Positions 3,276 to 22,774 of a stretch of DNA of 32,000 nucleotides are shown here, piece by piece (the first letter of the stretch is position 1; each line of letters starts with the position of its first letter). This DNA is from Halogeometricum borinquense DSM 11551 (GTDB taxonomy: Archaea > Halobacteriota > Halobacteria > Halobacteriales > Haloferacaceae): NCBI RefSeq assembly GCF_000172995.2, contig NC_014735.1, forward strand, positions 180,001 to 212,000, in the 5' to 3' direction. The notes beneath the pieces are model-generated. The model was given only the letters and a program-made list of their open reading frames with translations, was not told the DNA's origin and did no database searches. Both the position numbers and the translations under genes were made by a program.

Positions 3276-3276
3276 G

Positions 3277-6233: not shown

Positions 6234-9053
6234 ATGACAAGTAATACGAAGCAGTTCCGCGCAGTATTCCTCGCGGCGCTGATGGTTATGTCGGTCTTCG
6301 CCGGCACCATCGCGTTCGCTGGAAGTGCTGCTGCGGTCTCTGGTGCGTCCAAAGTAACCTTCAGTCCGACAGATGTCGATGAGGGTGAAACGGGCAGCCA
6401 GCACAACGTGAACGTATCGATTTCTGGATATACTAACGCTGATGGCGCTGCGGATACCATCAACGTCACGCTCCCCGCGGGCGTGACGTTCGCCAACTCC
6501 AATCTGGTCATCGAGAACGCCTCGGGCACCCAGATCGGCACTGGCTCCGTCACCTTGACGAACAACGACGCTAGCGCAGAGATCAGCATCAACCCTGCCT
6601 CTGGCGACGTTACGGACCCGATCTACCTGAGCGGTACCGTGACGGTTGACGCGCCGAGCAACATCGGATCCGACCAGCAAGGTCAGGTCACGCTCTCGAT
6701 GACGCAGTCTGACGGATCTGACCTCGCTGCGACTGACATCCAGCAGCTCACCGTCAACAACCTTGAGGAGGACAACACTGCTCCGAGCTTCGAGGACGCA
6801 GACCTCTACGACAACGACACGTCCGCGAGCGAGGATGCTGAACTCGAACTGGCCTTCAACGAGCCTATCAAGGACATCGAGAAGAGCGACTTCAACCTCT
6901 ACGTCGACGAGGAGCCGATTGCAGACAGCAAGATCTCGCTCGATCAAAAGGGAAGCTCCGGTCGCGTCGTGCTCGGTCTCGACGACGTCTACACGGGCGA
7001 CGTGGAGATCAAGCTCTTCGATAGCATCGAGGACACCTCGGGTAACGCACTCGACGACACGGGTAACAAGACGGTAACCGTCGCTCCCGTGCCGGTGAAG
7101 GATGGCAGCGACATCAACGCCTACCAGGGCTCCAACATCGCTGTTATCACCGATAAGACGCAAACCGAGATTACTGTTGAGGCCTCTGACGACGAGGACT
7201 TCGACTCCTTCCAGGAAGGTAACACTGGCACGAACAGTCAGGTCTACGTCTTCAGCACGACCGACGACACTGAAACCGGTCAGTACAACATCACTCTCAA
7301 GGGCGAGGGCAGCGCGCAGGTCAACGTCCGTAACCTCGGCCTCGAAGTGAACATCGACGACCTCAACGTCACGACTGAAGACGAGATTGAGGGAGTAGTC
7401 GAGGCGAAGGCAGGCAACCGTCCGGTCCGACTCGAACTGCTCGACTCCGACGGTGACACCGTCGAACAACGTGACGTCGAACTCTCGGGTCAGCGCAAGT
7501 ACGAGTTCTCGTTCAACGCATCGGAACTCGACCTCGACGCAGACAACTACACGGTCCTGGCGACGGACAAGCAGTCCGGCGTCGAATCCGAATCCTCCTC
7601 GATCGTTGTTAAGAAGGCCGGTGAGGGCCGCACATCGTTCCCCGGAGACCGTCTCTTCGTGGACCAGCGCGGTGACGTTGCGAACATCACGATCAACGTC
7701 GAAAACTCCGACTTCGCAACTCTGTCGCTCGGGTCGGACGATCTCGCCTTCGAGAGCAACGTGACGATCGAAGACGTCAACGGTGACGGACAGGTCAGCC
7801 TCCTGTTCAACACCTACGCCGCAACCGGAATGTCCGGTGACCTCGGCGATGGCGGTAACGTCTACAGTACCCCGTCGCTCGAAGATCAGGACGACGACGA
7901 GATCACCTCTGCAACTATCGAGCAGAGTGTCAAGTCGCTCCTCGAGCCGGGCCGGTACCCGCTCGAAGTCCGCGCGGGTCAGGATGAGACTGTCGACTCC
8001 GAAGACGCTGGTACGCTCGAGCTCGAAGAGCGTAACACGACGAACATCCAGAGCTGGGTCGCCCCGACTGGTACGAACTTCGAAGATATCGACGAACTCT
8101 ACGACGCAGTAGAGAACAACAACCTCACGCAGGCGAACAAGATTGCCAAAGGCGACATAGCGGTCCACAAGCTCGAGGCCTCCGGTCTTGAAGGGCTCCT
8201 TGGTGCACAGTCGGACGACGACGTGTCCAGCGAGTTCTTCTCCGAAGTCAATAGTGACGGCGCCTTCGAGCTCACCGTTGAGCAAGCGAACCCCGGTGCG
8301 AACCGCGACCCGTACGAACTCGAACTCGGTACGGACAACACGACTGTCTGGGCCGACTCCGACAACAACACGTACTTCATCAAGTACGATACGGACCAGG
8401 TCACGACGACCGAGCGTTCGATTGACAAGGATCACGTGCTCGAAGCGAACTTCACGGTCTACGAGGACGAAGGTAACCTCACCGACGTAGACGACGGTGA
8501 GACGGTCAAAGACGAGTACGAAGTTGTCGAGGCCGACTACATGATCGACGACCCGTACAACGTGACGAATGCTGCTGGTCAGACGATCATGGCCGAGACG
8601 ACTGTCGCGCCTGGTACGGAAGTCAGCGTACGAGCCCGCTCGACGGGTGACACGCAGCCGAGCTTCCTGAAGCCCGCGACCGTCTACGTCACCGAGAACC
8701 AGACGTTCTCGGCTACGCTCGACTTCAGCGAACAGGCAGTTGGCGACACCTACGAAATCACGATCGACGGCGGCGCAGCTGACTCTGTAACGGTTGATGG
8801 TAACGTCGTCGAGAGTCCCGAGACGCCGACGCCGACGGACACGCCGGACAACGAGACGGACACGGCGACTGACGGCGAAGATACGCCGACGGACACGCCG
8901 ACGCCGACGGCCACGCCGACTGACGGCGGAGACACGCCGACTGACGGCGGAGACACTGAAACTGAAACCGGCACGGGTACGCCCGGCTTCGGTGTCGTCG
9001 TTGCTGTCACGGCACTCCTCGCCGCGGCGCTCCTCGCAGTCCGCCGCGACTAA
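6234..9053 (+). CDS. csg: S-layer (cell surface) glycoprotein, PGF-CTERM anchored
   Basis: ATG 6234 is preferred over track start 6156. The signal peptide MTSNTKQFRAVFLAALMVMSVFAGTIAFAGSAAA closely resembles the haloarchaeal Csg signal peptide as I recall it from Haloferax (…LMVTSVFAGAIAFTGSAAA). 939 aa and very acidic. About 20 N-x-S/T sequons by hand count. Thr/Pro/Asp-rich C-terminal stalk and PGFGVVVAVTALLAAALLAVRRD (8982-9050). Confidence 0.85.
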   Translation: MTSNTKQFRAVFLAALMVMSVFAGTIAFAGSAAAVSGASKVTFSPTDVDEGETGSQHNVNVSISGYTNADGAADTINVTLPAGVTFANSNLVIENASGTQIGTGSVTLTNNDASAEISINPASGDVTDPIYLSGTVTVDAPSNIGSDQQGQVTLSMTQSDGSDLAATDIQQLTVNNLEEDNTAPSFEDADLYDNDTSASEDAELELAFNEPIKDIEKSDFNLYVDEEPIADSKISLDQKGSSGRVVLGLDDVYTGDVEIKLFDSIEDTSGNALDDTGNKTVTVAPVPVKDGSDINAYQGSNIAVITDKTQTEITVEASDDEDFDSFQEGNTGTNSQVYVFSTTDDTETGQYNITLKGEGSAQVNVRNLGLEVNIDDLNVTTEDEIEGVVEAKAGNRPVRLELLDSDGDTVEQRDVELSGQRKYEFSFNASELDLDADNYTVLATDKQSGVESESSSIVVKKAGEGRTSFPGDRLFVDQRGDVANITINVENSDFATLSLGSDDLAFESNVTIEDVNGDGQVSLLFNTYAATGMSGDLGDGGNVYSTPSLEDQDDDEITSATIEQSVKSLLEPGRYPLEVRAGQDETVDSEDAGTLELEERNTTNIQSWVAPTGTNFEDIDELYDAVENNNLTQANKIAKGDIAVHKLEASGLEGLLGAQSDDDVSSEFFSEVNSDGAFELTVEQANPGANRDPYELELGTDNTTVWADSDNNTYFIKYDTDQVTTTERSIDKDHVLEANFTVYEDEGNLTDVDDGETVKDEYEVVEADYMIDDPYNVTNAAGQTIMAETTVAPGTEVSVRARSTGDTQPSFLKPATVYVTENQTFSATLDFSEQAVGDTYEITIDGGAADSVTVDGNVVESPETPTPTDTPDNETDTATDGEDTPTDTPTPTATPTDGGDTPTDGGDTETETGTGTPGFGVVVAVTALLAAALLAVRRD
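8915..8956 (+). repeat. Perfect 21-bp tandem duplication (gccgactgacggcggagacac x2) encoding PTDGGDT PTDGGDT in the Csg stalk
   Basis: Direct reading: 8915-8935 is identical to 8936-8956. Confidence 0.95.
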
Positions 9054-9070
9054 CGTCGCTGGCTGAACCA

Positions 9071-9105
9071 CCGGCTCACGCCGGCCTCTTACTTTCCTTT
9101 CTTTC
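9071..9105 (+). terminator. Stem-loop (CCGGC tcac GCCGG) followed by a T-rich tract downstream of csg
   Basis: ccggctcacgccgg at 9071-9084, then ctcttactttcctttctttc, starting 18 nt after the TAA. Confidence 0.45.
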
Positions 9106-9162
9106 GGCGCGGTACCCGAGCACAGTCAAAACTCATCAGTAGTGTCATTCAATTCTAATAAG

Positions 9163-9176
9163 AATATTTAATATTT
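9163..9176 (+). promoter_or_regulatory. TATA-box region (AATATTTAATATTT) for the 9201 gene, with spacing that suggests a leaderless mRNA
   Basis: AT island in GC-rich DNA, centred ~31 nt upstream of ATG 9201. Two direct copies of the self-complementary hexamer AATATT. Confidence 0.5.
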
Positions 9177-9200
9177 CTCGATGGGTACATATACGAGTAG

Positions 9201-10019
9201 ATGCCGCCCAGAAGAGACCTCCATGTGATTAGCGAACGCGATCTCGTTTCCACGTACGATCCCCGCCAGTACGACGATGCGTGGGACGCGGTCGAACAGT
9301 ATCGATGTGTTCAGTCGTATCACGAACGCAACCCCGAGAAAGGATCCTCAGCCGTCTCGAACGAGTTTGGGTTACCCCGCGGCCGTGTCCACGGTTGGTT
9401 GCACGGTGGAAAGCCAGATCAGGTCAAAGCGCTCTCTTTCGGACACCAGTACGGCTGGTTCGACGCGACGTGGGAGGACGAAGCGGGACACGCGTTCAAT
9501 ACGCTTGTCGCCGCCGTCTTCGCTGGTGGATCCATTGGTGCGCGGGACTACAGCCTCAGATTCACCCTCGGGAAAGGACACGAGGCACAGATCACCGCCG
9601 CCGTCGAACGACTTGCCGGGGGCTACCGTACGGTTCAGGATATCGATGGCCGCAAGACGTGGGAGATTTCGCCCACGGAGGGACAGGCACCGCTGGCGCG
9701 CGCCTTGGTCGCGCTCGGCGCTCCGAGAGGCACGAAAAACGCCGATGCGGATGTCTCCCTTCCGCAGTACTTGAAGACGGCACCGGAACGAATCAGACAG
9801 GAGTTCCTACAAGTGTATCTCACGTTACGGGCCAGCGATGCTGAGTACACTAACTACCTCACGGTCCGCGAAAGCCGTCCCGACGAGTTCCTCGATGAAC
9901 TGGCAGCGTTCATGGATCAAGAACTCCCCGCCGAGGTGTATCGGAACGATAGCATCGTCGTCTCCCCCGAAGCGATAGATGCGCTGGACGCTCCCTTAGA
10001 AGAAGGTTCGCTCGGATAG
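9201..10019 (+). CDS. Hypothetical protein with an N-terminal HTH-like segment and possibly degenerate LAGLIDADG-like motifs
   Basis: Good haloarchaeal acidic composition. SSAVSNEFGLPRGRVHGWLHG looks HTH-like. LVAAVFAGGSIG and FLQVYLTLRASD weakly resemble degenerate LAGLIDADG helices lacking the catalytic acidic residues. The functional call is speculative. Confidence 0.65.
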   Translation: MPPRRDLHVISERDLVSTYDPRQYDDAWDAVEQYRCVQSYHERNPEKGSSAVSNEFGLPRGRVHGWLHGGKPDQVKALSFGHQYGWFDATWEDEAGHAFNTLVAAVFAGGSIGARDYSLRFTLGKGHEAQITAAVERLAGGYRTVQDIDGRKTWEISPTEGQAPLARALVALGAPRGTKNADADVSLPQYLKTAPERIRQEFLQVYLTLRASDAEYTNYLTVRESRPDEFLDELAAFMDQELPAEVYRNDSIVVSPEAIDALDAPLEEGSLG

Positions 10020-10053
10020 CGCTCGCCGCGTTCGCTTGATTCGGCCTGTGCGC

Positions 10054-13050
10054 CTATCGTTCGGTCCGAAGCAGGCGTTCGGGGTCGTGACTGAGGAAGG
10101 CGTATCCGACGCCGAGTGCACTGCCAATCGCAAGTGCAAGCGCGCCGAGTCCAGTCCCGAGGAGGAGTTCTACGGACTGGGGCGCGTGCAGTTTAATGCC
10201 GAAGATGACGAGTACGTCGCTTCGAGCGAGAACGTAAATGACGGTGAACGCCGTCCCGAATGCGATAGCTATCGCCGGAAGTGACAGTTTGACTGCATCC
10301 ACGGCGAGTACTCCGAGTAGTTGCCGGCGACTCGCACCCGTCGCACGGAAGATACCGATTCGGCGTCGGTTTGCGTGGACGGCATGAGCGAACGTTGCCG
10401 CTGTCCCACCGACCGTACTGACGCCAGCGAGAGCGATCATAACGAGGAACAGTACTCGAACGTTCCCGAAGACGCTCTCGATGGCGTGGTTGATGGCCGT
10501 CCCTTGTGAGTACTCGCCTTGGGACGCGAGCGTAGCGGTGACCCGTTCGTCACCGGTGACGCGGTACGTCGTCGTTGCGAGGACAATCTCATCCGAGACT
10601 AATCGGAGGTCGTACGTTCCGGGGGTGAGCGAGTCATCAAGTCCCGCGTCCGAGGCCGGAATACGAATTTGCGTGATATTGCCGCCGGTCATTTCCACGG
10701 TTCGGTGTTCCGTCTCCGCGGGGGTAACGAGCGAAACGTTTCGCACGAAAAACTGCCCCCATGGGTTCGCCAACTGTACCGTTACCTCCGGCTTGGTCAA
10801 TCGTGTTCCGCGTTGTGGTGATACCTGTAGTCGTCCGATGAGGCGCTGCGGTGCATCCTCTTCGACGACGAGCGTGCGCCGCTCGCTCGTGTAGTTCTGT
10901 TTCTCGATAGTGAGCGTGTACTCACCCGGTTCCGTGGGTACGCGCATGAGGACAGTGCCCTGCTCGTTCGTCGTACCCTGCCGATCTCCGAGCGTTACTG
11001 TCGCCCCCGTAACGGGCGTCTCGTTCCGCGTCGTCGCGGGGACGATGAGTGTCGAACCCGGTGGTGCCCGTCTGGGGAACTTCGCGGGGAGTCGGAGCGT
11101 TCGCGGACTGAACACTTCGACTGACTTGGTCATTTCTGCCGCTGTTATCGTGTGCGTTCCCGGCTCTGCGAAGGTGAACCCGACATCGGCCGCGCCGCTT
11201 TCTCCCGGCCCGACAGAGAGCGTTCGACTGCGCGTCCTGTTATCAGCGCGAACCGTTACGTTCCGCGTCGCGGCTTTCTTCCCAAGGTTCTCTCCTCGAA
11301 CCGTCAGCGTGTACGTGTGGTTAACTTCTACCGATGACGAACCTGATAGCTCGGTCACGACGATACCGCTTGATTGCCCCGCAAATCGCTCGAAGTCGAG
11401 CGTATCACCGTTCGTCCGGATGAGGTGAACGGTTTTACTGTCGGTGGCTAACTGCTGTCCCGTCTGTAGCGGAATGAGTAGTTGGTCGTCGGTGATACCG
11501 TCGCCCGAGAATCGCCCGACAATTGTGAGTCGCCGAACGCCGGGCGTGACACTTCCACCGACCATTATCGTCTCACCCACGCTGACATCGAGCGTGTCCG
11601 CGAGACTTGTCCCGATAACGGCCTCGTCGTAGGCCGCTGGGGTCCGCCCTTCGACTACTGTCGTATTCGAAACCGCGCTGAACGCCGTGTAGTTCGCTCC
11701 GCGAGCGAGATACGGTTCGCCGTTTCGTGTCTGCGCGTACAGTACCTCTGGACTCGCCGTGATGTTCTGCGAGCGCAGGACCGACGCGTACTCCTCGCTG
11801 ATTCGGCTATTCAGCGGGTGCGTGATACCGGCCTCGGTGACAGTGCCGCTCGACGTCGTTGCCAGTGGTGCGAGTGCGCCGCCGATTGCAGTCGTGAGGA
11901 GGATAACCAGCACGAAGACGGCAACTGTCGTCGTCGTCGGAACGACCGCCCGCCAATCGACGAACGTGGGCTGGACGAGCGAGAGCCGTTCTCGAACCCG
12001 TGTCGCAATCGACTGTGTCGTGTTCGTGGAGCGGCCGATTGTCGCAGGACTCCCTCGAACGACGGGAACTGATGCGAGAACGCCGGCGAGCACGCCCATC
12101 CCGAGGAGGAAGCCACCGATCTGTAGCACTGCCCACAGAATATCCGACGTGACGACGGCCCGTATCGTGACCGGCAATCCGGCGTACGTCGCCGCGTTGA
12201 TGACGGCTTTTGTCGTGATGAGACCGATTGCAAAGCCCAATATCACCCCTGTCCCGACGAGTCCGAGAACCCGCCCTTGCAGCACAGCGAAGAGACGGAT
12301 CGGTGAGATACCGGTCGCCCGCGCCACCCGTATCTCCGGATGGCGGTCGCGTATCGACATTCGCGTCACGTTGTAGACGACGACAAGGATGAGTAATCCG
12401 CCGCCGACGGCGGCGATGGTGAGCGTTCGTATCACCTGCCCGAGACCGCTGACTAAGAACGGTAACGCGCCGATCAGTGGTGCTCCCTGTTCTTGCCACT
12501 GTGCGATACCTGCCGGTTCTCCTCCGGCCTCGATGACGAGTGCGCCTGATGCTCCGAGTGATGTAACCGTATCAGCCGATCCGACGTACCACTCCGCCGG
12601 GAATATCGACTGTTCGGGCGGGTGTGGTGACACCGTCGTGTCGGTCGTTCCGACGGGGAGTTGTGTCGTTCGGGGGACTGGACCGTATAGCCCCTCGTCC
12701 GGAGCGCTGGGGACGGTCGCTGGTTGCCATGCGACCGACGCCTCCTCGATTCTCGGTGGGGCGTCCGGCGGAATCCCGACGACCGTTCGGGTGTGACCGT
12801 CGATATCGACACGTATGAGCGGAAATACGAGGTCTCCCGTATCCGTGGCGGCGACGGCAGCGTCGTGTGACTCGTAATACGTCGCCGTCGAAGCGCTTTC
12901 GAGGTCGCCTTCGAGCGTCGATGTGTAGGAGCCGACAGTCAGCAAGAGGACGGCGGAGCCGATGAGAAACGCCGTGGTGACGGCGATGACAGCGACACTC
13001 AGCCACTCCCGGCGAGACCACGACGAAAGCAGCGTCGATTCGAATCGCAT
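10054..13050 (-). CDS. Giant double-FtsX (MacB-like, type VII ABC) permease with large extracytoplasmic beta-sandwich-rich domains, paralogue 1
   Basis: Two FtsX-module signatures: MSIRDRHPEIRVARATGISPIRLF and ANRRRIGIFRATGASRRQLL. MacB-periplasmic-core-like YDEAVIGTSLADTLDVSVGETIMVGGS. A carboxypeptidase-regulatory-like repeat ATVTLGDRQGTTNEQGTVLMRVPTEPGEYTLTIEKQNY. Starts 18 nt downstream of the ATPase gene. Confidence 0.9.
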   Translation of the reverse strand: MRFESTLLSSWSRREWLSVAVIAVTTAFLIGSAVLLLTVGSYTSTLEGDLESASTATYYESHDAAVAATDTGDLVFPLIRVDIDGHTRTVVGIPPDAPPRIEEASVAWQPATVPSAPDEGLYGPVPRTTQLPVGTTDTTVSPHPPEQSIFPAEWYVGSADTVTSLGASGALVIEAGGEPAGIAQWQEQGAPLIGALPFLVSGLGQVIRTLTIAAVGGGLLILVVVYNVTRMSIRDRHPEIRVARATGISPIRLFAVLQGRVLGLVGTGVILGFAIGLITTKAVINAATYAGLPVTIRAVVTSDILWAVLQIGGFLLGMGVLAGVLASVPVVRGSPATIGRSTNTTQSIATRVRERLSLVQPTFVDWRAVVPTTTTVAVFVLVILLTTAIGGALAPLATTSSGTVTEAGITHPLNSRISEEYASVLRSQNITASPEVLYAQTRNGEPYLARGANYTAFSAVSNTTVVEGRTPAAYDEAVIGTSLADTLDVSVGETIMVGGSVTPGVRRLTIVGRFSGDGITDDQLLIPLQTGQQLATDSKTVHLIRTNGDTLDFERFAGQSSGIVVTELSGSSSVEVNHTYTLTVRGENLGKKAATRNVTVRADNRTRSRTLSVGPGESGAADVGFTFAEPGTHTITAAEMTKSVEVFSPRTLRLPAKFPRRAPPGSTLIVPATTRNETPVTGATVTLGDRQGTTNEQGTVLMRVPTEPGEYTLTIEKQNYTSERRTLVVEEDAPQRLIGRLQVSPQRGTRLTKPEVTVQLANPWGQFFVRNVSLVTPAETEHRTVEMTGGNITQIRIPASDAGLDDSLTPGTYDLRLVSDEIVLATTTYRVTGDERVTATLASQGEYSQGTAINHAIESVFGNVRVLFLVMIALAGVSTVGGTAATFAHAVHANRRRIGIFRATGASRRQLLGVLAVDAVKLSLPAIAIAFGTAFTVIYVLARSDVLVIFGIKLHAPQSVELLLGTGLGALALAIGSALGVGYAFLSHDPERLLRTER

Positions 13051-13068
13051 CTCAGCCCCCGAGCGCGG

Positions 13069-13767
13069 TCATTGCCGCGGAGAGTAGTCTATCGATTCCA
13101 GCTCGTCGTCGTCCGCATCTGTGATGCGGCCGTCTTGGAGGAGTACTGTCTCCGCGAACCGCGGTGCTAACCCTCGGTCGTGGCTGATGAGTACGAGAGC
13201 GGTATCCGTCTGCGCTTTGACTCTGAAGAGGAGATCAAGCACGCGCTCGGCCGTGTTCGGGTCGAGTTGTCCTGTCGGTTCGTCCGCCAGCACAACGTCG
13301 GGTTTGTTCGCCAGCGCGCGGGCGATGGCGACGCGTTGTTTCTCCCCGCCGCTCAGCGTAGTTGGGTACTGCTCTCTGAGGTCTGTGATGTCGAGCGCGT
13401 CGAATAGCGTTTCGAGCCACGATTCGTCGCGGCTCCCGGTGTGGTCCTGCGGGAGCGCGGCGTTGTCCCACGCGGAGAGGTCCGGAATCAGCTGAAAATC
13501 CTGAAACACGAACCCAATCGTATCGCGCCGAATCGCGGCGCGCTTTCGCTCCGGTAGCGAACTGGCGTCCTCGCCGTTGACGAAGAGTGACCCGCTGGTC
13601 GGTGTACTCAGTAGTCCGAGAACGTTGAAGAGAGTCGTTTTGCCAGCGCCGCTCGGGCCTCTGACAAGGAGCGACGTGTCGTCGGCGACATCGAGCGAGA
13701 TGCCGTCGAGAATGACGCTCCCTCCCCGTTCGACAGTGACGTTTTCGCCGCGGAGCACGGGTGCCAT
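13069..13767 (-). CDS. ABC transporter ATP-binding protein (MacB/LolD-type)
   Basis: Walker A GPSGAGKTT, Q-loop FVFQDFQLIPDLSAWDN, signature LSGGEKQRVAIARAL, Walker B VVLADEPTGQLD, H-loop ISHD. Confidence 0.95.
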   Translation of the reverse strand: MAPVLRGENVTVERGGSVILDGISLDVADDTSLLVRGPSGAGKTTLFNVLGLLSTPTSGSLFVNGEDASSLPERKRAAIRRDTIGFVFQDFQLIPDLSAWDNAALPQDHTGSRDESWLETLFDALDITDLREQYPTTLSGGEKQRVAIARALANKPDVVLADEPTGQLDPNTAERVLDLLFRVKAQTDTALVLISHDRGLAPRFAETVLLQDGRITDADDDELESIDYSPRQ

Positions 13768-13843
13768 CTTGCCGCCACGTTCACGCTTCTCCTATGTATG
13801 TCGTTTGCTTCTGTGAGTTACAAACTGACGACACGAATCGACG

Positions 13844-14362
13844 CTACCGCTTGACCGGATGCTGGTGCCGACTCCACGCCCAGACTGCCACCGCCACGAT
13901 AGCAAGCGAGAACTGAACTCGCATCCCGAGACCGAAGCCGTGGTTGAGCAGTCGTACCCACGGCGGTATTCCGTCGTTCGGATAGTTGATTGCGGGGAAC
14001 ACGGGCCAGAGGAGGAATCGAAGCTCCGTCCACTGCTGTGTGAGAACGAGTCGATAGGAGTCGCCGAGTACGTGTGAGAGCGTGCCGACACTGAGGATCG
14101 GCCACAGCGGCCGCCGTTCGAGGTGAACCAAGATTGTCCCCACGAGGAGCAGCACTGGGACGAGAACCACGAGCGAGTGTGCGAGCGAGCGCCCACTCGA
14201 CAGCACGCCGATGTACACGAGCGGTTTGTCCACGAGGTCAGGGAGTTGCGATGCCACGACGAGGATGGCAAGCGGACGGCCGTGCGGCAGTTGGATATCC
14301 GTGACTCTCGCGTAGAGAACGTAGCTGAGATATGCCAGCGCGAGATGCCCGATTGGATACAC
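13844..14362 (-). CDS. Membrane-bound metal-dependent hydrolase-like protein (DUF457/YdjM-like)
   Basis: GTG start. Small polytopic protein with His-containing motifs MYPIGHLALAYL, LAHSL and LSHVLGDS, typical of that family as I recall it. The 190-aa alternative-frame ORF (13792..14364) is Ser/Arg-rich and not membrane-like. Confidence 0.7.
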   Translation of the reverse strand: MYPIGHLALAYLSYVLYARVTDIQLPHGRPLAILVVASQLPDLVDKPLVYIGVLSSGRSLAHSLVVLVPVLLLVGTILVHLERRPLWPILSVGTLSHVLGDSYRLVLTQQWTELRFLLWPVFPAINYPNDGIPPWVRLLNHGFGLGMRVQFSLAIVAVAVWAWSRHQHPVKR

Positions 14363-14416
14363 ACGTAGAGTCGCTTGCGGCGGACGTATCAGTGTTCGGT
14401 TCCGACGCCGTCGCGT

Positions 14417-16075
14417 CTAACAACCCGAGTACTGACCGCTCGGCATCGAGATGACGAGTGGGTCGCGTCCGTTTGAGGCGTAGACCACGTTTCGAGACGA
14501 GAGCCACCGGTCGTACGCTTCCGGTGAGACCGTTTTCGGGGCTGTCGGGAACAGGTGTGCCCCGGTCGTCGTCCACGACCGCTGTGAGAGGACCGGACAG
14601 GATGGACTCGAACCTCCGGTCAACCAGTTTGCAACGGGGTCGAACGTTGCGTTTTCGTCGAATACGTACACTCCGATTCGCGTAACTGGATGGTCGCTTA
14701 CCCAGTCCGACTCGCTTTGGGTGCTGACGAACTCGATGCCCTGATACTCGGACGGCATGGTCGTTGTGAGGGCTGACCCGGAGTCTAAGTTGATGAACGC
14801 AAGCGGTGCCGAGGCGGTCACGGTCGCAACGACGAGTAAGACGAGCAGTATGCGGAGTGCTCGCCGTGGGCTACTGTCACCCCGCCGTTCGAGCAATCGC
14901 GCAACGGTGATCGCACTGATGATCAAGATCGGGAGGTGAAGGAACGTCTGTGCGCGCATTGCAGTGGCGAAGTACTCGGGTGTGAGCGACGCCGTGAGGC
15001 TAAAACCGATGATGACGGCCGGCGCGGAAAACAGTGCCACGAGGAGGAAAGCACCGCGATATTCATCGAGAACATCCAGCGAGGCGACCGCTGCGAGTGC
15101 AACGACGACGAGCAGACTCACCAATCCGAGTACGGTTCGTGGCGTGGTCACCGTGCCCGGGAAGATGGGCGTGAACGCGTTCAGGATCACAACGGCGAAG
15201 AACGAGCCGATGACCGCGAGATACGTTCCCTGCCTGATGCGGAGGCTGGTGTGTTGGATCCACACCACGCCGATAACGAGGACGATACCCCACGCGACGA
15301 ACAGTCCCGGATAGGCCGTGATGCGATCCACGTACGGAACGGTGAGCGAAAGGCTCGTTGCCGCAGTCCGGTAGTAGACGGCGATGTACGCCCAAAACCC
15401 ACCTGCAAGCCCGACACCACAGAGCAGCGAGCGGCGTGTCAACGTCCGCGAGACGTGCAGTGCAGTCAGCGCAGTGACGATCAATCCGACGACGAGCGAC
15501 GTGAACGTGTGTAATATCGGGAAGATACCGAGAAGCAGTCCGACGATACCGTACCATCGTCGCTGGCCCGTCCGGAAGGCGTAATGAAGCGAGACCGCAA
15601 CGATCAAAGAGAGGAGGATTGCGACGATTTCTTCGTCCGGGACGGCCGTTCGTCGCAGGAATAATCCTTGGACCGCGAGGAGACCGGCCGTGACTGTGGC
15701 GACAGTAGACGGTCGGACCGAGAGGTGCGGAGTATCGCGGACGATGCGGCGTGCGACGACGGCACCGACGAAACAGATGATCGCACCGATTGTCGTCGCT
15801 AGCGGTTGGGCCACGTATAGCGGATCAGCATCGAATACGGTGCCGGTGACAGCGAACAGCGACGTGAACAGCAGGCTATCCGCCCGTCCGGTGAGCGGCA
15901 CCGACCCGGTTTCGGTCGCCGTCCGCGCCATCGCGGCGTAGTTGAAGCCGTCCAACGTCGAGGGATACGGACTCAGGTGGAGTGGAAACGACCGGATCGC
16001 AAGCGCTAGCAGTACTAGAGCGGTGAGGGCGAGTCCGAACCGTCGTCGTCGTTTACGCATCGCGTCGTTCCCCAC
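14417..16075 (-). CDS. GT-C-fold-like polytopic membrane glycosyltransferase candidate (ArnT/PMT/AglS-like) with a C-terminal extracytoplasmic domain
   Basis: More than 10 predicted TM helices. The first loop LDGFNYAAMARTATETGSV aligns with the ArnT-type DETRYAEISREMLASGDW motif (D..YA...R.....G). ~130-aa soluble C-terminal domain. Overlaps the upstream permease stop by 23 nt, or by 8 nt if the alternative ATG 16060 is used. Confidence 0.75.
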   Translation of the reverse strand: MGNDAMRKRRRRFGLALTALVLLALAIRSFPLHLSPYPSTLDGFNYAAMARTATETGSVPLTGRADSLLFTSLFAVTGTVFDADPLYVAQPLATTIGAIICFVGAVVARRIVRDTPHLSVRPSTVATVTAGLLAVQGLFLRRTAVPDEEIVAILLSLIVAVSLHYAFRTGQRRWYGIVGLLLGIFPILHTFTSLVVGLIVTALTALHVSRTLTRRSLLCGVGLAGGFWAYIAVYYRTAATSLSLTVPYVDRITAYPGLFVAWGIVLVIGVVWIQHTSLRIRQGTYLAVIGSFFAVVILNAFTPIFPGTVTTPRTVLGLVSLLVVVALAAVASLDVLDEYRGAFLLVALFSAPAVIIGFSLTASLTPEYFATAMRAQTFLHLPILIISAITVARLLERRGDSSPRRALRILLVLLVVATVTASAPLAFINLDSGSALTTTMPSEYQGIEFVSTQSESDWVSDHPVTRIGVYVFDENATFDPVANWLTGGSSPSCPVLSQRSWTTTGAHLFPTAPKTVSPEAYDRWLSSRNVVYASNGRDPLVISMPSGQYSGC

Positions 16076-19031
16076 TTCCTTCAGGGACTGGTATATGTCT
16101 GTCTACTAGGAGCGACGCTGGCATCTTCCGAACCATCCCCGCTGTCGCCAGCGTCGCACTGATGACCGCGAGTGCGACGCCGCCGACGAGCGCAGCGACA
16201 ACGGCTGTCGGCGTGATAACGGGTTCGAGGACGACTCCGAAGACGCGGAGTTCCCCCACCGAGAGGAGTCCGCTGACGACTCCGAACGCGATTACTCCTG
16301 CGAGCACCGTCGCGGTCGTCCCGATTTTGAGCGTATCGACGATCACGTCGGTGAGAATCGCCCACGGCGATGCGCCCGTCGCGCGCCGGATCCCGATTTC
16401 GCGCTTCGTCGTGTGAACCGCACGAGTGAATGCGGCGGTGGTGCTTCCGACCGTCATCACGGATAGCAGCGCGACGACAGCGAGGACGAGCACTTCGATA
16501 TTGCCGAATGCAACCTGAATCGCCTGCGTAATTCCTCCGCCGCCGGTGTATCTGCCGCTCTGTGCGAGTGCCGCACCGAGTCGATCATCACCCTGTACAG
16601 TGTACGTCGCGGTGACGCGCTGTCCTGCTGTTGTCGTTGCTTCGACGGTGTACGACCCGGCTGGCCGCCGCGGCAGTCGGGCGCGCACGGTTGCCGTCTC
16701 ACCCGATTCAACAGTCACGGGGCGTTTCTTTTCGACGCTCGGCCCGGTTACTCGGAGTGACGACTGAACCGTCTCTGCCCACGGATTCCATGCGCGTACG
16801 GTCGCTTTCGGTCGCGTGAAGATGCTTGGCGCATCCGGTGAGACCGTCGCGTCGAGCGTCAGTGCCCGAACAGCGTCGTCTCTGACGGTTACTGTGGTGG
16901 TTTCTCGCTCTCCGTTACTTGTGGCGACGAGCGTCGCGTTCCCAGTCGAGTTGAGCGCCAGTCTGGCGAGTCCGCGGTCGTTCGTTGTCACGGTTTGTGC
17001 GCCGAGACTAATCGTCGCGTTTGCCACTGGTGTGTCTCCGTGAGATACCCTCACCGCAGGTGTACTGTTCGTCGGTGCCGTCCGCGGTGCGGAGATCGAG
17101 AGTCCCGAGAGGTTGTCGGATTCGCCGTTCGGCCCGCCGACACTGACGTTTTTGGTAATTTCGCCGACTGCGAGTGTATGCGTTCCTGACGGGGTTTCGT
17201 CGAACGGAACGAACACGCGCGTTGACTGCTGGCTCCCGACCGTTACCGATCTTTTGCGGACGGTAGACCCGAGTTTGATCTCGAACTCCCGAGTTGCCTC
17301 GCTCAGACCGAGGTTCGTCACGGCGACGGACACGCCGGTTCGGTTGTTCACGTTTCGGAGGCGTGCACTCGTCGCAACAAGCGTTGATGTTGCTGCGGTC
17401 TCGCGGTCGAGGCCGCGCGTCCGGACGAAGTGAACCGAGTCGTCGCGGATATTCCCCATCTCTCGTGCGGCCGGTATCGAGACGAGTAGTTGGTCGTCCT
17501 GAATCCCCGTTCCAGTGAACGTTCCGGTGATGTTGAACCGTGCGACGCTGGCGGTTGTACTACCGCCGATGACGACTGTTTCTCCCGGCGATAGGTCGCT
17601 CGAACGAGCGAGATCAGCCCCGATGACAGCCTCGTACCGCTGGTTGGGTGCGGACCCCTCCGTGATTTGGACGCCGGATAGCTCCCGGTATGCGGAGAAG
17701 TTGACGCCTCGTGCGACAATCGGATCGCCCTCGTACACCTCGAACAGGAGAATCTCCGGGCTGGCTGCCGCCTCTTGAGAGCGAAGCGCGTCGGCGTACA
17801 CGACCGGCACGTTGCTGGCAATCGGATGCGGAGCATCCGGTTGCGTTATCGTCTGTCCATCGGTGTCCGAGGCGGGACCGACCGCACCCGCGACCGCGGT
17901 CAAGAGCAACAGCGCACACATGAACACTGTGAGCGTCGAGGCGGTTGGAACGAGCGCTTCCCATCCGAGTAGCCGCGTTTTGAGGAAGCTGCTGCACGTT
18001 TCCAGCAATCCAGCGAATCGGCTGGTGTCAGCGTCTGCGGTTTGCCGTGCTGGTTTGGCGAGTGCGGCCGGTTCCTGTGTCGCGCCTTTGTATGCCGCAA
18101 GGAGGCCGGACAGACCCCCAACGACGAGGAATAACACAACGGCGGGAACGAGTACCGAGAGTACCGGTTGAGATATCTGTGCACTCAGCGATGTCGGTAG
18201 CCCGCCGTATATCGCGGCGTTGACGACGACACGAACGAGGATGAGACCGAAGCCGTATCCGACGGCGGTCCCGACCGCCGTGAGCGTGACCGCTCGAAGC
18301 GCGAAGAGTTGGAGGACCTGCCGCGGCGTCGCACCGGTCGAGCGCAGTACGGCGATATCTGGTCTGCGTTCCCGAACGGTGATCTGAACGACGCTGTAGA
18401 TGGTCACCGCAACGAGGATGCCCGCCGCTACCGTCGCCAGCCTGAGCAGTCGAACGAGTTCGCCCGCGCCGCGGACGAAGAACTCCAAGGCGGAGAGCAG
18501 CGGCGTGGCAGCGCGTCCGTCAACTGATCGAATCGTGACTTGGGTGGCGTGGTCGAACGAGGCGGCAGTCGCTGGGTCGGTGACGTACCACGAATCGGGA
18601 ATGAACGAGTTCGATTGGCGGGATCGAATACTGACGGTCTCTCCGCTCGCATCCGACTGTAGTCGTGATTCAGGCCCCTGATACGCCGCCGCAGCGAGCG
18701 CCCCGCGTTCAGGCGTCGGGAGCGAAATCGTCTCTCCTCGAACAGTGAGAGCGGAAGCATCACGCGGAATCCCGACGACCGGGACTTGTTGGCCGTCGAG
18801 CGTCGTCTCAGCGAGCGTCAACGTGAGCGCTGTCGATGAACTGCTGTCTTGGGGTGTCTCGTATATCCCGTAGGATGTCTCGTACTCGGCCGCGATGGTC
18901 GTCGTCTGATCGCCGAGTGCCACGCCGAGAACGGCCGCACCGACGAGAAACGAGACCGTGAGTGCGATGACCACGACGGCGAGTGTATCTCGTCGTGCCC
19001 ATCCGAACGACAGAACTCGACGGTATCCCAT
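16053..19031 (-). CDS. Giant double-FtsX (MacB-like) permease, paralogue 2, with no ATPase gene adjacent to it
   Basis: Collinear with the 10054..13050 product. FtsX signatures ITVRERRPDIAVLRSTGATPRQVL and HTTKREIGIRRATGASPWAIL. PCD-like RYEAVIGADLARSSDLSPGETVVIGGS. Multiple beta-sandwich-like repeats in the second outside region. Confidence 0.9.
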   Translation of the reverse strand: MGYRRVLSFGWARRDTLAVVVIALTVSFLVGAAVLGVALGDQTTTIAAEYETSYGIYETPQDSSSSTALTLTLAETTLDGQQVPVVGIPRDASALTVRGETISLPTPERGALAAAAYQGPESRLQSDASGETVSIRSRQSNSFIPDSWYVTDPATAASFDHATQVTIRSVDGRAATPLLSALEFFVRGAGELVRLLRLATVAAGILVAVTIYSVVQITVRERRPDIAVLRSTGATPRQVLQLFALRAVTLTAVGTAVGYGFGLILVRVVVNAAIYGGLPTSLSAQISQPVLSVLVPAVVLFLVVGGLSGLLAAYKGATQEPAALAKPARQTADADTSRFAGLLETCSSFLKTRLLGWEALVPTASTLTVFMCALLLLTAVAGAVGPASDTDGQTITQPDAPHPIASNVPVVYADALRSQEAAASPEILLFEVYEGDPIVARGVNFSAYRELSGVQITEGSAPNQRYEAVIGADLARSSDLSPGETVVIGGSTTASVARFNITGTFTGTGIQDDQLLVSIPAAREMGNIRDDSVHFVRTRGLDRETAATSTLVATSARLRNVNNRTGVSVAVTNLGLSEATREFEIKLGSTVRKRSVTVGSQQSTRVFVPFDETPSGTHTLAVGEITKNVSVGGPNGESDNLSGLSISAPRTAPTNSTPAVRVSHGDTPVANATISLGAQTVTTNDRGLARLALNSTGNATLVATSNGERETTTVTVRDDAVRALTLDATVSPDAPSIFTRPKATVRAWNPWAETVQSSLRVTGPSVEKKRPVTVESGETATVRARLPRRPAGSYTVEATTTAGQRVTATYTVQGDDRLGAALAQSGRYTGGGGITQAIQVAFGNIEVLVLAVVALLSVMTVGSTTAAFTRAVHTTKREIGIRRATGASPWAILTDVIVDTLKIGTTATVLAGVIAFGVVSGLLSVGELRVFGVVLEPVITPTAVVAALVGGVALAVISATLATAGMVRKMPASLLVDRHIPVPEGSGERRDA

Positions 19032-19210
19032 GGAGTCAGTCTACAGACAACCCTCCGCCGGGAAGTAACTATCTGTCTGGTTTTCGTTCTGCAACGCGGA
19101 CGACAGAAACGAAGTGAGAATCGTTAGACCGACGTTAATTGGTCGGCAAACGCTGTCGTATTTTCATCCCCGCCCGGACTCCTCCGTACGTTATCGCTAT
19201 GACAGCAAGT

Positions 19211-19217
19211 ATTATAT
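19211..19217 (+). promoter_or_regulatory. TATA-like element ATTATAT upstream of the GT2 gene
   Basis: Centred ~34 nt upstream of GTG 19248 and ~94 nt upstream of ATG 19308. It is compatible either with a leaderless GTG start or with a ~60-nt leader. Confidence 0.35.
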
Positions 19218-19264
19218 GAATGTCTTTCGGAATCACACGTAGACTCTGTGGCTGAGTCAACCGG

Positions 19265-19285
19265 GCACCTACACAGAGTAGGTGC
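19265..19285 (+). repeat. Perfect 8-bp inverted repeat (GCACCTAC acaga GTAGGTGC)
   Basis: Direct reading. Lies 23 nt upstream of ATG 19308. Confidence 0.9.
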
Positions 19286-19292
19286 GACCAAA

Positions 19293-19306
19293 CACACACA
19301 CACACA
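19293..19306 (+). repeat. (CA)7 dinucleotide microsatellite immediately upstream of ATG 19308
   Basis: cacacacacacaca ends 1 nt before the ATG. It lies inside the reading frame if GTG 19248 is the start. Confidence 0.95.
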
Positions 19307-19307
19307 A

Positions 19308-20546
19308 ATGTCTACTGAGATTACACGGAAGGGATCCCAAGGGGACGTAAGAGGGGCGTCTCCGCCTGAAGTTTCCGAAGCGCATAGGTCGGGTGATGAA
19401 CTGCTGCTGGATGCAGACAGTGAAACCGAACCGGTGCTGTCGCTCGTCATGCCGACGCTGAACGAAGAGGAAGGCATCGAGGAGTGCATCGGTCGGATGA
19501 AAAACGCACTCGAAGAGTTACAGATTACTGGCGAAATCGTCGTCAGTGACAGTTCGACCGACAGAACACCCGAGATAGCCGAATCGATGGGTGCTATCGT
19601 CGTCGAACCCGATAAACCGGGCTACGGCTACGCGTATCAGTACGCGTTCGATCACGCCCGTGGCGATGCTATCGCAATCGGGGACGCCGACACGACGTAC
19701 GATTTCGAGGAGCTTCCGAAGCTCTACGAACTCGTTGCGAACGGTGACGCTGATATGGCGATGGGGAGCCGATTGAACGGTGAGATCAAAGATGGCGCGA
19801 TGCCGCCACTTCACCAGTACGTCGGCAATCCATTGCTCACGAAGTTCCTCAACGTCTTCTACGGTGCAGGCGTGAGTGACGCACACTCGGGGATGCGTGT
19901 CCTGTCAAAGGAGGCTTGGGAACAGATGGAATGTGATTCGCCGGGCATGGAGTTCGCCTCGGAGATGATTATGGAGGCGGGTGCCCGCGACCTCACTATC
20001 GAGGAGCGCCCGATCACGTACCACGAGCGGGAAGGCGAAGCGACCCTGGAGAGTTTCCAAGACGGGTGGCGTCACGTTCGGTTCATGCTCGTGAACGCTC
20101 CCGGCTATCTGTTCTCCATCCCCGGTATCCTGATGTCGATAGTCGGTGCGTTCGTCATGCTGGCGGCGTACACTGACGTTTCAATCGGTGCGACCGGGTT
20201 CGGGCCACACTCGATGGTTCTGGGAAGCTTCCTGGTTCTCGTCGGCTACCAAGTGACGAGTCTCGGGGTCTTCGCAACTGTCGTCGGCGATCCGATCAAA
20301 AAACCGAACGACCCATTCACGAACTGGTTGGTCCAGAACGTGACACTCGAACGCGGTGTGACAGCGGGTGCTATCCTGTTCGGCATCGGTGCGGCCTACG
20401 CCGGTGTGATGGTTAGCCAGTGGGCACTGAGCGGATTCACGGAACTCCCATTCCTCTTGGGCGATATCGCCGCCCTGACCGGGATGATTCTCGGTTTACA
20501 GATGGTGTTCTCCGCATTCTTCCTCAGTACCGCCAACCGCTGCTAA
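19308..20546 (+). CDS. GT2-family glycosyltransferase with a C-terminal 4-TM domain (Dol-P-sugar synthase-like, AglD/AglJ-like)
   Basis: LSLVMPTLNEEEGIEECI, VVSDSSTDRTPEIA, DxD-type GDADTTYD, GSRL. Hydrophobic C-terminal third. Alternative upstream GTG at 19248 (the track start). Confidence 0.9.
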   Translation: MSTEITRKGSQGDVRGASPPEVSEAHRSGDELLLDADSETEPVLSLVMPTLNEEEGIEECIGRMKNALEELQITGEIVVSDSSTDRTPEIAESMGAIVVEPDKPGYGYAYQYAFDHARGDAIAIGDADTTYDFEELPKLYELVANGDADMAMGSRLNGEIKDGAMPPLHQYVGNPLLTKFLNVFYGAGVSDAHSGMRVLSKEAWEQMECDSPGMEFASEMIMEAGARDLTIEERPITYHEREGEATLESFQDGWRHVRFMLVNAPGYLFSIPGILMSIVGAFVMLAAYTDVSIGATGFGPHSMVLGSFLVLVGYQVTSLGVFATVVGDPIKKPNDPFTNWLVQNVTLERGVTAGAILFGIGAAYAGVMVSQWALSGFTELPFLLGDIAALTGMILGLQMVFSAFFLSTANRC

Positions 20547-20565
20547 CAACACCTCAACGACGACC

Positions 20566-20580
20566 GCTCTCGTTTTTGCT
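20566..20580 (+). terminator. Oligo-T (ctctcgtttttgct) downstream of the GT2 gene
   Basis: TTTTT at 20573-20577, 27 nt after the TAA. Confidence 0.4.
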
Positions 20581-20773
20581 GTAACACTCGTACGACTGTT
20601 ACACTATCTCTCGGCGTTGCACTGTGATTGTCCGTCGCGGTTGAGTCGTTTTCTGTGGATGCGTTTGGGGCGTATCGAATCCGCGAGTAGATAACCGTAT
20701 TCGGCACGTGGAGTTCGGGGTCCGGAGCTCGGAGTTCGGCTTGCCCGCGGTTCTGAATCGTGAATGGCTGTCG

Positions 20774-20789
20774 ATAATCGGTCGATTAT
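20774..20789. repeat. 7-bp perfect inverted repeat ATAATCG gt CGATTAT
   Basis: Direct reading. Lies 8 nt upstream of the tetramer array. Confidence 0.85.
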
Positions 20790-20797
20790 GCCACCTA

Positions 20798-22757: not shown

Positions 22758-22774
22758 GTAGGTTTTCGGTGGGC

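Follow-up and report, generated by a model that had tools for sequence, protein, structure and literature searches.

A 32,000-nucleotide stretch of the Halogeometricum borinquense DSM 11551 genome (contig NC_014735.1, positions 180,001 to 212,000; the whole stretch is called the window here) carries on its minus strand, at 10054-19031, a cluster of five co-directional open reading frames (ORFs). These encode two giant ATP-binding cassette (ABC) permeases, P1 and P2, a polytopic membrane protein named M552, a small YdjM/DUF457 membrane protein and an ABC ATPase (Table 1). Across haloarchaea, the conserved unit of this cluster is the pair formed by a permease gene and the M552 gene that follows it, with the ATPase as an optional member. 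The permeases are of the type VII (MacB/FtsX-type) class, and M552 is predicted to adopt a GT-C glycosyltransferase fold like that of oligosaccharyltransferases (OSTs). This pairing of a type VII mechanotransducer with an OST-like GT-C family is phylogenetically broad and undescribed. The literature searched (haloarchaeal FtsX, archaeal MacB, locus tags, DUF1616) yielded no paper on the module, in agreement with a first-pass annotation of the sequence, to whose author no characterised archaeal system of such composition was known.

Conservation of the permease-M552 gene pair

All five ORFs were found where the first-pass annotation had placed them, and the gaps of 54, 76 and 18 nt that it listed further down the cluster are exact, the last of these separating the ATPase gene, downstream of P1, M552 and YdjM, from P2. 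The first junction is an overlap: ATGCGTAA is the sequence at which the P1 stop codon and the M552 start codon meet. The overlap had been drawn at 16053-16075, which is real if M552 starts at GTG 16075 (552 aa, 23-nt overlap with P1), but a start at ATG 16060, from which the overlap is counted as 8 nt, is more likely; H. borinquense annotations call a 547-aa protein from the same start. Judged from the sequence, the overlap is a probable translational-coupling junction. The 216-bp region upstream of P1, when read by eye, gave no confident assignment of a TATA box or B recognition element (TATA/BRE). The cluster is not a chance ORF pattern, since window positions 8922-26911 are collinear, at 96.9% identity, with a contig of another H. 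borinquense genome (L057 in our numbering of loci, GCA_040679015.1) and since the core recurs in dozens of genera; P1 itself is 97% identical to an H. borinquense protein.

Conservation of the gene order was assessed by a locus scan of one genome per species with a seven-sequence query. The scan returned 45 loci, onto which the window proteins were mapped by tblastn and ORF-level BLAST, and counts are given over the 40 loci longer than 15 kb. M552 lies directly downstream of a permease gene, on the same strand, in 31 of these 40 loci, which represent more than 15 genera. An orthologous ATPase (at least 55% identity) is present in 27/40 loci, and both the ATPase and M552 in 19/40. About 14 loci carry two permeases (16 in the raw tblastn results, in which two loci counted one broken gene twice) and about 26 carry a single one. 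A YdjM homologue was found within 10 kb in 11/40 loci, at varying positions and on either strand (also in L050), and a GT2 homologue is adjacent in 4/40; both are variable accessories. The first-pass annotation had treated the five genes as a unit linked to csg, but of the gene order only the permease-M552 pair is conserved, and a csg gene beside the cluster was seen in H. borinquense alone among the loci. Near the P2-type locus of Halalkalicoccus (L026) there is a weak, partial csg-like match of 28%. The set of P1, GT-C gene, ATPase and P2 occurs in Halogeometricum, Halobellus, Haloferax and Halegenticoccus, and a Haloferacaceae plasmid carries it with P2 inverted.

The junction between the two genes is also tightly kept. 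Overlaps of 4 or 8 nt between permease and M552 occur in Haloferax, Halobellus, Halegenticoccus, Halorarius, Halomarina, Halorubrum, Halomicrobium and Natronomonas, as well as in the Thermoplasmata-type loci described below. When distance matrices were compared for the 31 adjacent permease/M552 pairs, the correlation was r = 0.72, a value reached by 0 of 2000 Mantel permutations; what this shows is that the two are inherited together, not that they are in contact. Haloferax volcanii has no entry among the genome hits or the members of the P1 and M552 clusters, and P1 and M552 appear to be absent from it, which may be the reason why the module is unstudied.

More distant relatives were sought with a HMMER scan of 1.84 billion representative proteins, which returned 308 relatives of M552 at E <= 1e-3. 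Genomic context was obtained for eight sampled relatives, six of which lie directly after FtsX permease genes; these six are from Halomicrobium, Natronomonas and four lower-GC metagenome contigs (L051, L054, L055, L060). One M552 relative from the four contigs has a 90% cluster mate labelled 'Thermoplasmata archaeon'. In this Thermoplasmata-type module, one strand carries genes for DUF1616 and an ABC ATPase (in L051, gene calling gave no ATPase next to DUF1616), and divergent from them are two half-permease genes followed by the M552 homologue, mostly with 4-nt overlaps. The first half-permease is a ~340-380-aa FtsX protein and the second a ~410-aa MacB_PCD-FtsX protein (677 aa in L051). They align collinearly, the first to the N-terminal half and the second to the C-terminal half of both P1 and P2, and the immunoglobulin (Ig)-like array of P1 is absent from the ~410-aa second permeases, in three of the four loci. 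Since the two halves are separate genes in these contigs, the haloarchaeal permease of 1000 aa corresponds to a fused LolC/LolE-like pair. The two most distant M552 relatives (E ~1e-30) do not lie beside FtsX genes. They are found inside clusters of GT4, GT2, Glycos_transf_4 and methyltransferase genes, a setting that independently ties the M552 family to lipid-linked glycan assembly.

In a further form, permease and M552 are parts of one protein. P0199 is a 1488-aa permease::M552 fusion (L052, 6001-10467; L053, 4780-9246) from a high-GC (68%) metagenome-assembled genome (MAG) of a halophilic archaeon, with a DUF1616 gene directly upstream. Its two assemblies are independent and differ by 3 mismatches and 1 gap over 10 kb, so the fusion is unlikely to have arisen in assembly. 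It is also feasible in its topology, because the C-terminus of the permease and the N-terminus of M552 are both cytoplasmic. The series from two half-permease genes through a 1000-aa permease to a 1488-aa permease-GT-C protein represents a clean case of progressive gene fusion.

Two kinds of neighbour were recorded beside the pair in other genomes. In Halomicrobium (L049, 1067-5050) and Natronomonas (L050, 646-3840), a second, conventional MacB-like system directly precedes the giant permease-M552 pair on its upstream side; it has an ATPase and two permeases of ~410 aa (MacB_PCD/FtsX). Genes for DUF4350, MoxR (AAA_3), DUF58, a ~740-aa MG4/DUF4129 protein and DUF1616 adjoin the module in 16-18 loci, in varying order (for example L005, 1574-9876; also L013, L015, L023, L027-L030, L035, L040, L044, L050 and others). 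The 32-kb window contains none of these genes.

To place P1 and P2, a neighbour-joining tree of 52 permeases was built. A P2 clade is split off with a bootstrap of 80/100. It comprises P2 of the window, the second permeases of Halogeometricum, Halobellus, Haloferax and Halegenticoccus, the divergent second permeases of Haladaptatus and Halocatena, the sole Halococcus permease and one Halalkalicoccus copy. M552 never follows a gene of the P2 clade, and every M552-coupled permease falls in the other clade, which also holds a Natronococcus subclade and two MAG sequences without an adjacent M552. Halococcus has the P2 type only, with YdjM and an ATPase, and Halorubrum, Haloplanus and Natronomonas have the P1 type only. 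P1 and P2 thus belong to old, separate clades. In Halalkalicoccus salilacus (L026, 13282-16151), the P1-type gene appears to be split into two fragments in succession, suggesting a frameshift or pseudogene; the fragments adjoin an intact P2-type permease gene and an ATPase gene, with the csg-like match ~1 kb downstream.

Predicted folds of M552 and the permeases

Sequence searches gave no family for M552. Neither Pfam nor NCBIfam has a match to it, and PADLOC was negative as well; among 40 members of the family, no meaningful Pfam match was seen and none to PF02516 (STT3) at E values up to 1, and a family profile searched against PDB chains found none at E values up to 10. Some relatives are labelled 'sodium/phosphate symporter' in databases (UniRef). 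An AlphaFold2 (AF2) model built with 40 homologues has a pLDDT of 93.5 and a pTM of 0.92. In a Foldseek comparison of this model with the PDB, the top 21 matches are all GT-C enzymes, with a probability of 1.00 at ranks 1-19. The best are human and yeast STT3 (9.3e-9), Archaeoglobus AglB (2.3e-7) and Campylobacter PglB, with E values up to 4.3e-6 and query TM-scores (TMq) of 0.47-0.57, and next come DPY19, ArnT (5f15), AftA, ALG9, Pmt4 and Emb. Folds other than GT-C (MFS transporters and others) reach a probability of at most 0.28 and a TM-score below 0.2. The earlier description of the middle gene as GT-C-like is therefore confirmed at the level of the modelled fold, for a sequence that has no match of its own.

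Secondary structure and hydropathy suggest ~13 transmembrane (TM) helices in M552, starting from an inside N-terminus and ending in an outside C-terminal domain of ~130 aa. Across 40 sequences, the invariant residues are D42, H189, N299, P306, R374, Q376, H380 and W501, and D66 and D147 are nearly invariant. D42, present in 40/40, belongs to the motif P-x-T-L-D-G-F in the first outside loop, directly after TM1, the loop in which GT-C enzymes carry a conserved acidic catalytic residue. A conserved cysteine pair is formed by C493 and the C-terminal C552. By the topology model, the conserved residues lie in outside loops or at the outer ends of helices. In the place of a WWDYG-like motif, the family has S-W-T-T-T-G-A-H, in which W501 and G505 are invariant. 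Because it has neither a PF02516 match nor WWDYG, M552 is not a member of GT66. On the evidence of the model, M552 represents a new GT-C family with an OST-like fold outside GT66, one that is invisible to Pfam and NCBIfam and mislabelled in some databases. A glycosyltransferase activity is likewise suggested by the modelled fold.

The two permeases are collinear paralogues, as the first-pass annotation had described them. Each contains two stretches of FtsX (PF02687; P1, 1.4e-20, 74 bits; P2, 9.8e-18, 64.8 bits; cutoff 25.5), and they share 33% identity over 975 collinear residues (E 1e-136). An AF2 model of P1 (52 homologues; pLDDT 85.9, pTM 0.77) has eight TM helices in the order TM1, extracytoplasmic domain 1 (ECD1), TM2-TM4, cytoplasmic linker, TM5, ECD2, TM6-TM8, a layout with which a hydropathy scan agrees. 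The two halves are joined by the ~40-aa non-hydrophobic linker at residues 319-356. The existence of two outside regions was correctly anticipated from the sequence, but both are smaller than proposed: ECD1 has ~130 aa, not ~170, and ECD2 (~aa 385-831) has ~450 aa, not ~480-500.

ECD2 begins with an alpha/beta module and contains an inserted array of three beta-sandwiches, bounded in the AF2 model at 551-631, 644-716 and 725-813, which resembles SiiE and TEP1/MG domains in Foldseek. The segment (Y/D)EAVIG...GET..(V/I)GGS, which had been taken as MacB-PCD-like, is present in both P1 and P2, and the beta-sandwiches that had been read from the sequence are found in the model, but MacB_PCD (PF12704) itself scores in neither permease; it does score in a homologue (P0031, 2.1e-10). 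A profile of the permease family matches the periplasmic domain of LolC (6f49) weakly, with E 0.099 at positions 469-536. CarboxypepD_reg matches in P1 and P2 are below threshold, and in Pfam searches of 16 permease-family members CarboxypepD_reg was found in 11 and CARDB in 8.

Foldseek comparison of P1 with the PDB gives E. coli YbbP first (3.6e-9), followed by LolE, HrtB, YtrF, MacB and a pneumococcal MacB-like protein, with E values to ~1e-4; BceB is lower in the list (8s5g, 3.3e-4). A profile search of PDB sequences with the permease family found YtrF, LolF, LolC, MacB, HrtB and LolE. P1 and P2 are type VII ABC permeases with an inserted Ig-like array, because they have two FtsX modules, a large outside domain for each four-TM unit and a fold like that of YbbP, LolE, HrtB, YtrF and MacB. 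The assignment to MacB/Lol/FtsX-type systems made from the sequence is upheld by the FtsX, Foldseek and PDB profile matches. By analogy with these systems, P1 and P2 would be expected to act by mechanotransmission rather than by transmembrane transport.

The cluster has one ABC ATPase gene. Its product matches ABC_tran at 1.3e-32, with Walker A, signature, Walker B and H-loop intact, and its best NCBIfam models are LolD (181 bits), FtsE, YbbA and DevA, each below the equivalog cutoff. That the cluster has a single ATPase gene had been noted from the sequence; Pfam, NCBIfam and the motifs support a LolD/FtsE-like type. An anti-phage defence role for the cluster was considered and rejected; PADLOC yields just generic FtsX and ABC matches.

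Table 1 Features of the cluster and its borders (positions in the window).
Feature	Coordinates	Strand	Description
P2	10054..13050	-	998-aa double-FtsX permease, second, GT-C-independent clade
ABC ATPase	13069..13767	-	232 aa, LolD/FtsE/MacB type; ABC_tran
YdjM/DUF457	13844..14362	-	172-aa small membrane protein; PF04307
M552	14417..16060	-	547-aa polytopic membrane protein; GT-C fold predicted by AF2/Foldseek
P1/M552 overlap	16053..16060	-	8 nt; P1 TAA 16055-16053, M552 ATG 16060-16058
P1	16053..19031	-	992-aa single-chain double-FtsX type VII ABC permease, 'GT-C-coupled' clade
P1 Ig-like array	16593..17381	-	three beta-sandwiches, aa 551-813, inserted in ECD2; AF2
P1 MacB-PCD-like alpha/beta module	17391..17879	-	~aa 385-547 (393-547 in AF2); contains YEAVIGADLA...GETVVIGGS
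P1 ECD1	18495..18887	-	beta-rich, ~aa 49-179 (~130 aa), between TM1 and TM2; AF2 and hydropathy
P1-GT2 divergent intergenic region	19032..19247	.	216 bp; presumed operon promoter region, from sequence
GT2	19248..20546	+	Dol-P-hexose-synthase-like glycosyltransferase with C-terminal TM helices

Proposed coupling of P1 and M552 and its alternatives

Type VII ABC systems pass ATP-driven motion to domains outside the membrane, where it serves the extraction of lipid-anchored or hydrophobic molecules or the activation of a partner enzyme (LolCDE, HrtBA, BceAB, FtsEX, YbbAP-TesA). The donors of GT-C enzymes are linked to polyprenyl phosphate and are used at the outer face. The reading that we favour, and hold with evenly divided confidence, is that P1, a dimer of the ATPase and M552 form one complex in which a donor, acceptor or product linked to lipid is presented at the GT-C active site, or taken away from it, by the permease. 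The P1-type permease would be the dedicated partner of the M552 encoded immediately downstream. Binding and hydrolysis of ATP in the cytoplasm would move the large outside domain of P1, and this movement would lift or present a membrane-embedded lipid-linked molecule to the outward-facing active site of M552, or remove it from there. Possible molecules are a sugar donor on dolichol phosphate and an acceptor or product with a lipid anchor; glycosyl transfer at the outer face would thereby be ATP-assisted. P2-type transporters would work without a GT-C enzyme, and YdjM and GT2 would be optional. Candidate substrates include surface glycoproteins, a glycolipid or lipoglycan, and the dolichol carrier. 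Coupling of P1 and M552 is argued for by the adjacency in 31/40 loci, the overlaps of 4-8 nt, the co-inheritance and the fusion.

Several observations weigh against this reading. The permease::M552 fusion belongs to one lineage. Of the 31 permease-M552 loci, 12 lack an orthologous ATPase within 10 kb, so that ATP coupling of the pair is not obligatory in the gene order, and the Natronococcus permeases, although of the P1 type, have no adjacent M552. A WWDYG-like motif, the hallmark of OSTs, is found in 0/40 members of the M552 family, and the basis for a GT-C activity consists of fold similarity and conserved residues. The mirror-tree correlation between permease and M552 can come from shared vertical descent alone. 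Finally, the single ATPase probably serves both P1 and P2, a sharing deduced from there being one ATPase gene.

A more specific form of the coupling would be a holoenzyme of P1, ATPase dimer and M552 in which ATP hydrolysis in the cytoplasm mechanically drives or gates an outward-facing, dolichol-linked transfer, for AglB-independent glycosylation of surface proteins or for the building or extraction of a lipid-anchored glycoconjugate. We consider this form tentative and rather doubtful. If true, it would be a new class of archaeal envelope machine, extending from Thermoplasmata to Halobacteria. Known partners of type VII systems are EnvC with amidases, LolA, MacA-TolC and TesA. A GT-C enzyme as dedicated partner would be a new use of the type VII mechanism and, if the proposal holds, the first link of ATP hydrolysis to extracytoplasmic glycosyl transfer. 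In carriers such as H. gibbonsii and H. borinquense, the M552 family would supply candidates for gaps in archaeal glycobiology. A role of the cluster in handling S-layer or PGF-CTERM proteins is speculation.

The module could alternatively confer antimicrobial resistance (to halocins, bacitracin-like compounds or peptides), combining a Bce/MacB-like protection or clearing of lipid-carrier intermediates or toxins with an ArnT-like modification of an envelope lipid or glycan. Relatives are annotated 'ABC-type antimicrobial peptide transport system permease', both BceB (8s5g) and ArnT (5f15) are among the fold matches, and a gene for a Dol-P-sugar-synthase-like GT2 and one for a histidine kinase are adjacent. 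However, the topology of P1 is not Bce-like, the kinase is soluble and is not conserved by the module, GT2 is adjacent in just 4/40 loci, and the closest folds are YbbP/Lol and OSTs, not BceB and ArnT. We regard resistance as an unlikely function.

Another explanation assigns the central role to M552, as an AglB-independent protein glycosyltransferase (a second OST or an O-glycosyltransferase) acting on S-layer or other surface proteins, with the transporter as an accessory. STT3, AglB and PglB are indeed its closest folds, its distant relatives lie in glycan-assembly clusters, and in the window it is found between csg and the rmlABCD/flippase island. There are also vacancies for such an enzyme, as gaps are left for an OST in the Agl15 pathway of H. 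volcanii and for the enzymes of archaeal O-glycosylation (PMC8241124). M552 is not the OST of that organism, however, and this identity was rejected, since H. volcanii has no homologue among the hits or cluster members. In addition, M552 has no WWDYG and no STT3 Pfam match, its outside domain is small for this role at ~130 aa, linkage to csg or agl genes is not conserved, and the tight coupling to a type VII permease would be left unexplained. An enzyme of this kind with an accessory transporter therefore seems quite unlikely.

The first-pass annotation had proposed that P1 and P2 form a heteromeric or alternating machine powered by one ATPase, acting with the GT-C protein and YdjM on the S-layer, PGF-CTERM proteins or glycans. 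This is consistent with the presence of one ATPase for two co-directional permeases separated by short gaps, with the P1-M552-ATPase-P2 order kept in four genera, and, as to the envelope, with csg and the gene for a PGF-CTERM protein nearby. However, each chain already holds both half-transporters, about two-thirds of the loci have a single permease, and the two clades are old and occur independently (P2 in Halococcus; the P1 type in Halorubrum, Haloplanus and Natronomonas). P2 is divergent in Haladaptatus and Halocatena, and csg is a neighbour in H. borinquense only. YbbP binds two copies of YbbA on its own, with an ATPase:permease ratio of 2:1 (PMC12646458). By analogy, one permease chain with an ATPase dimer would be a complete machine, as in YbbA2-YbbP. 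Because the two halves of the fused permease occur elsewhere as separate genes and YbbP needs no second permease to bind two YbbA, P1 and P2 are better read as two separate transporters, and a P1/P2 heteromer is improbable.

Lastly, the absence of any functional link, with M552 a transporter kept beside P1 by inherited synteny, would suit the 'sodium/phosphate symporter' names and a mirror-tree that reflects species phylogeny, but we consider it highly improbable, since the overlaps are kept from Thermoplasmata-type loci to Halobacteria despite split or fused permeases and rearranged neighbourhoods, a gene fusion exists, and transporter folds reach a probability of at most 0.28 against 1.00 for the best GT-C match.

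Flanking genes and comparison with known systems

Within the cluster, the presence of a DUF457 gene, as first proposed, was verified by a YdjM match above the gathering threshold (PF04307; 45.1 bits, cutoff 29, 1e-11, profile positions 1-137 of 176). A 190-aa ORF that overlaps it in another frame has no family match. GT2, divergent from P1, matches Glycos_transf_2 at 1.9e-25, with the AglJ and DPhHxTase_Halo models below their cutoffs, and its H. borinquense orthologue is annotated GT2_TM_C. GT2 could supply a lipid-linked sugar donor in this genome; its membership of the module is weak, and as a pointer to a polyprenyl- or dolichyl-phosphate-linked donor for M552 it is circumstantial.

The position of the cluster between csg and glycosylation genes holds for the window, as the first-pass annotation had noted. 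On one side lies csg (6156-9053, plus strand; NF041335, 1.5e-172), near which a PGF-CTERM protein is encoded. On the other side are GT2, a soluble hybrid histidine kinase, rmlB/D/A/C and a MOP flippase gene. In the kinase (20904-22469), receiver, PAS and HisKA domains were found but not a hydrophobic segment, and its gene is not a conserved neighbour of the module. A small flippase gene of the GtrA type was not recognised.

Between csg and P2 there is a 272-aa ORF (9201-10019) without a family match. The genes flanking csg (110-4149, plus strand, and 4816-5925, minus strand) encode a 648-aa protein with an alpha-macroglobulin TED/terpene-cyclase-like domain and PKD/CARDB domains, a 413-aa dockerin-domain protein, a 290-aa PGF-CTERM protein and a 369-aa membrane protein. 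In Haloferax, homologues of the dockerin, PGF-CTERM and 369-aa membrane proteins directly adjoin P2 (L001, L006, L007, L011, L012). Since Haloferax has these genes beside P2, it is in H. borinquense only that csg and the 272-aa ORF lie between them and P2.

At the other end of the window, collinearity with the second H. borinquense genome (GCA_040679015.1; 96.9% over 18 kb) ends at ~26.9 kb, inside or next to rmlC. Past this point, the window has a low-GC island of flippase and membrane-protein genes, and a 446-aa sulfatase and another flippase are encoded in the second strain; the region looks like a strain-variable glycosylation island. Within the island (39-44% GC), beside the MOP/Wzx flippase gene (27088-28512), a plus-strand gene (28862-30721) encodes a 619-aa polytopic protein with ~12-13 hydrophobic segments, a ~130-aa C-terminal soluble part and no Pfam or NCBIfam match. 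It may be another enzyme of lipid-linked glycans in the rhamnose pathway, either a polymerase, a ligase or a GT-C. Comparison of M552 with this second unannotated polytopic protein by hhalign was negative. Further on, a 256-aa minus-strand ORF (30870-31640) matches only the C-terminal half of the Sulfatase profile (154-299 of 301) and may be a truncated gene or have a mis-called start.

Among characterised systems, YbbAP resembles the module in that its permease is one pseudo-dimeric chain bearing two outside domains, that its ATPase is a separate protein bound as a dimer, and that a dedicated enzyme partner is encoded alongside. However, the halves of YbbP, which has 10 TM helices, are linked by the TM5-6 pair, against 8 TM helices and a ~40-aa cytoplasmic linker in P1 and P2, and YbbAP works with an esterase that is soluble in the periplasm in place of a GT-C protein with 13 TM helices; YbbP also has no Ig-like arrays. 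A YbbP-type assignment of P1 and P2 was rejected on the number of TM helices, the non-hydrophobic linker and a sequence E value of 0.48, and no TesA-like gene is present in the cluster. LolCDE is similar in that the Thermoplasmata-type module likewise consists of two different half-permease genes and one ATPase, that LolC, LolE and LolF are among the best matches, and that the ATPase scores best against the LolD model. Nevertheless, the module falls far under the Lol equivalog cutoffs (for example 24.7 vs 362 bits) and lacks both LolA and LolB; in haloarchaea its permeases are fused and bear a ~260-aa Ig-like array, and the partner is a GT-C protein.

BceAB and ADOP also have two FtsX modules per chain, a separate ATPase and a large outside domain. 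In contrast to P1, with 8 TM helices and two outside domains, BceB has 10 TM helices and a single outside domain between TM7 and TM8, and it works with a cognate BceRS that has an intramembrane-sensing kinase, while the adjacent kinase here is soluble; a Bce-type assignment was rejected on this topology. P1 and P2 as ADOP proteins (TIGR03434) were rejected as well, at 27.5 bits (8e-7) against a cutoff of 622.3. We know of no case in which BceAB or ADOP is paired with a GT-C enzyme. For M552, the GT66 enzymes STT3, AglB and PglB, which transfer a lipid-linked glycan to Asn in N-x-S/T, provide the top folds and share a predicted topology of ~13 TM helices, an invariant aspartate in the first outside loop and an outside C-terminal domain. 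M552 differs from them in having no sequence similarity, no WWDYG or DK/MI-type motif and a C-terminal domain of ~130 aa, and in the linkage of its gene, which is to a type VII permease and not to agl genes.

In H. volcanii, a conserved cluster of 11 genes (HVO_2163-HVO_2173) encodes an ABC ATPase, two ABC permeases, DUF4350, MoxR, DUF58 and DUF1616 proteins (PMC8241124). Schulze et al. list it without an assigned function, and several of its products are N-glycosylated (PMC8241124). DUF1616, DUF58, MoxR and DUF4350 genes are the same ones that adjoin the permease-M552 module in 16-18 loci, but HVO_2163-HVO_2173 has no GT-C gene as described, and its permeases are split. The module was also compared with HVO_2082-2084 ('probable substrate macrolides', N-glycoprotein), and identity was rejected: this is a different three-gene operon, and P1 and M552 have no H. 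volcanii entry. Finally, three-component systems combine a GT2 enzyme, a flippase and a GT-C enzyme, as in ArnC/ArnEF/ArnT, CsbB/GtcA/YfhO and AglD/AglR/AglS of H. volcanii (PMC11127046). The window is similar in having a GT2 gene divergent beside an operon with a predicted GT-C enzyme. It differs in that no GtrA-type flippase gene was seen and that the link to GT2 is found in 4/40 loci, whereas the constant partner of the GT-C protein here is an ABC mechanotransducer.

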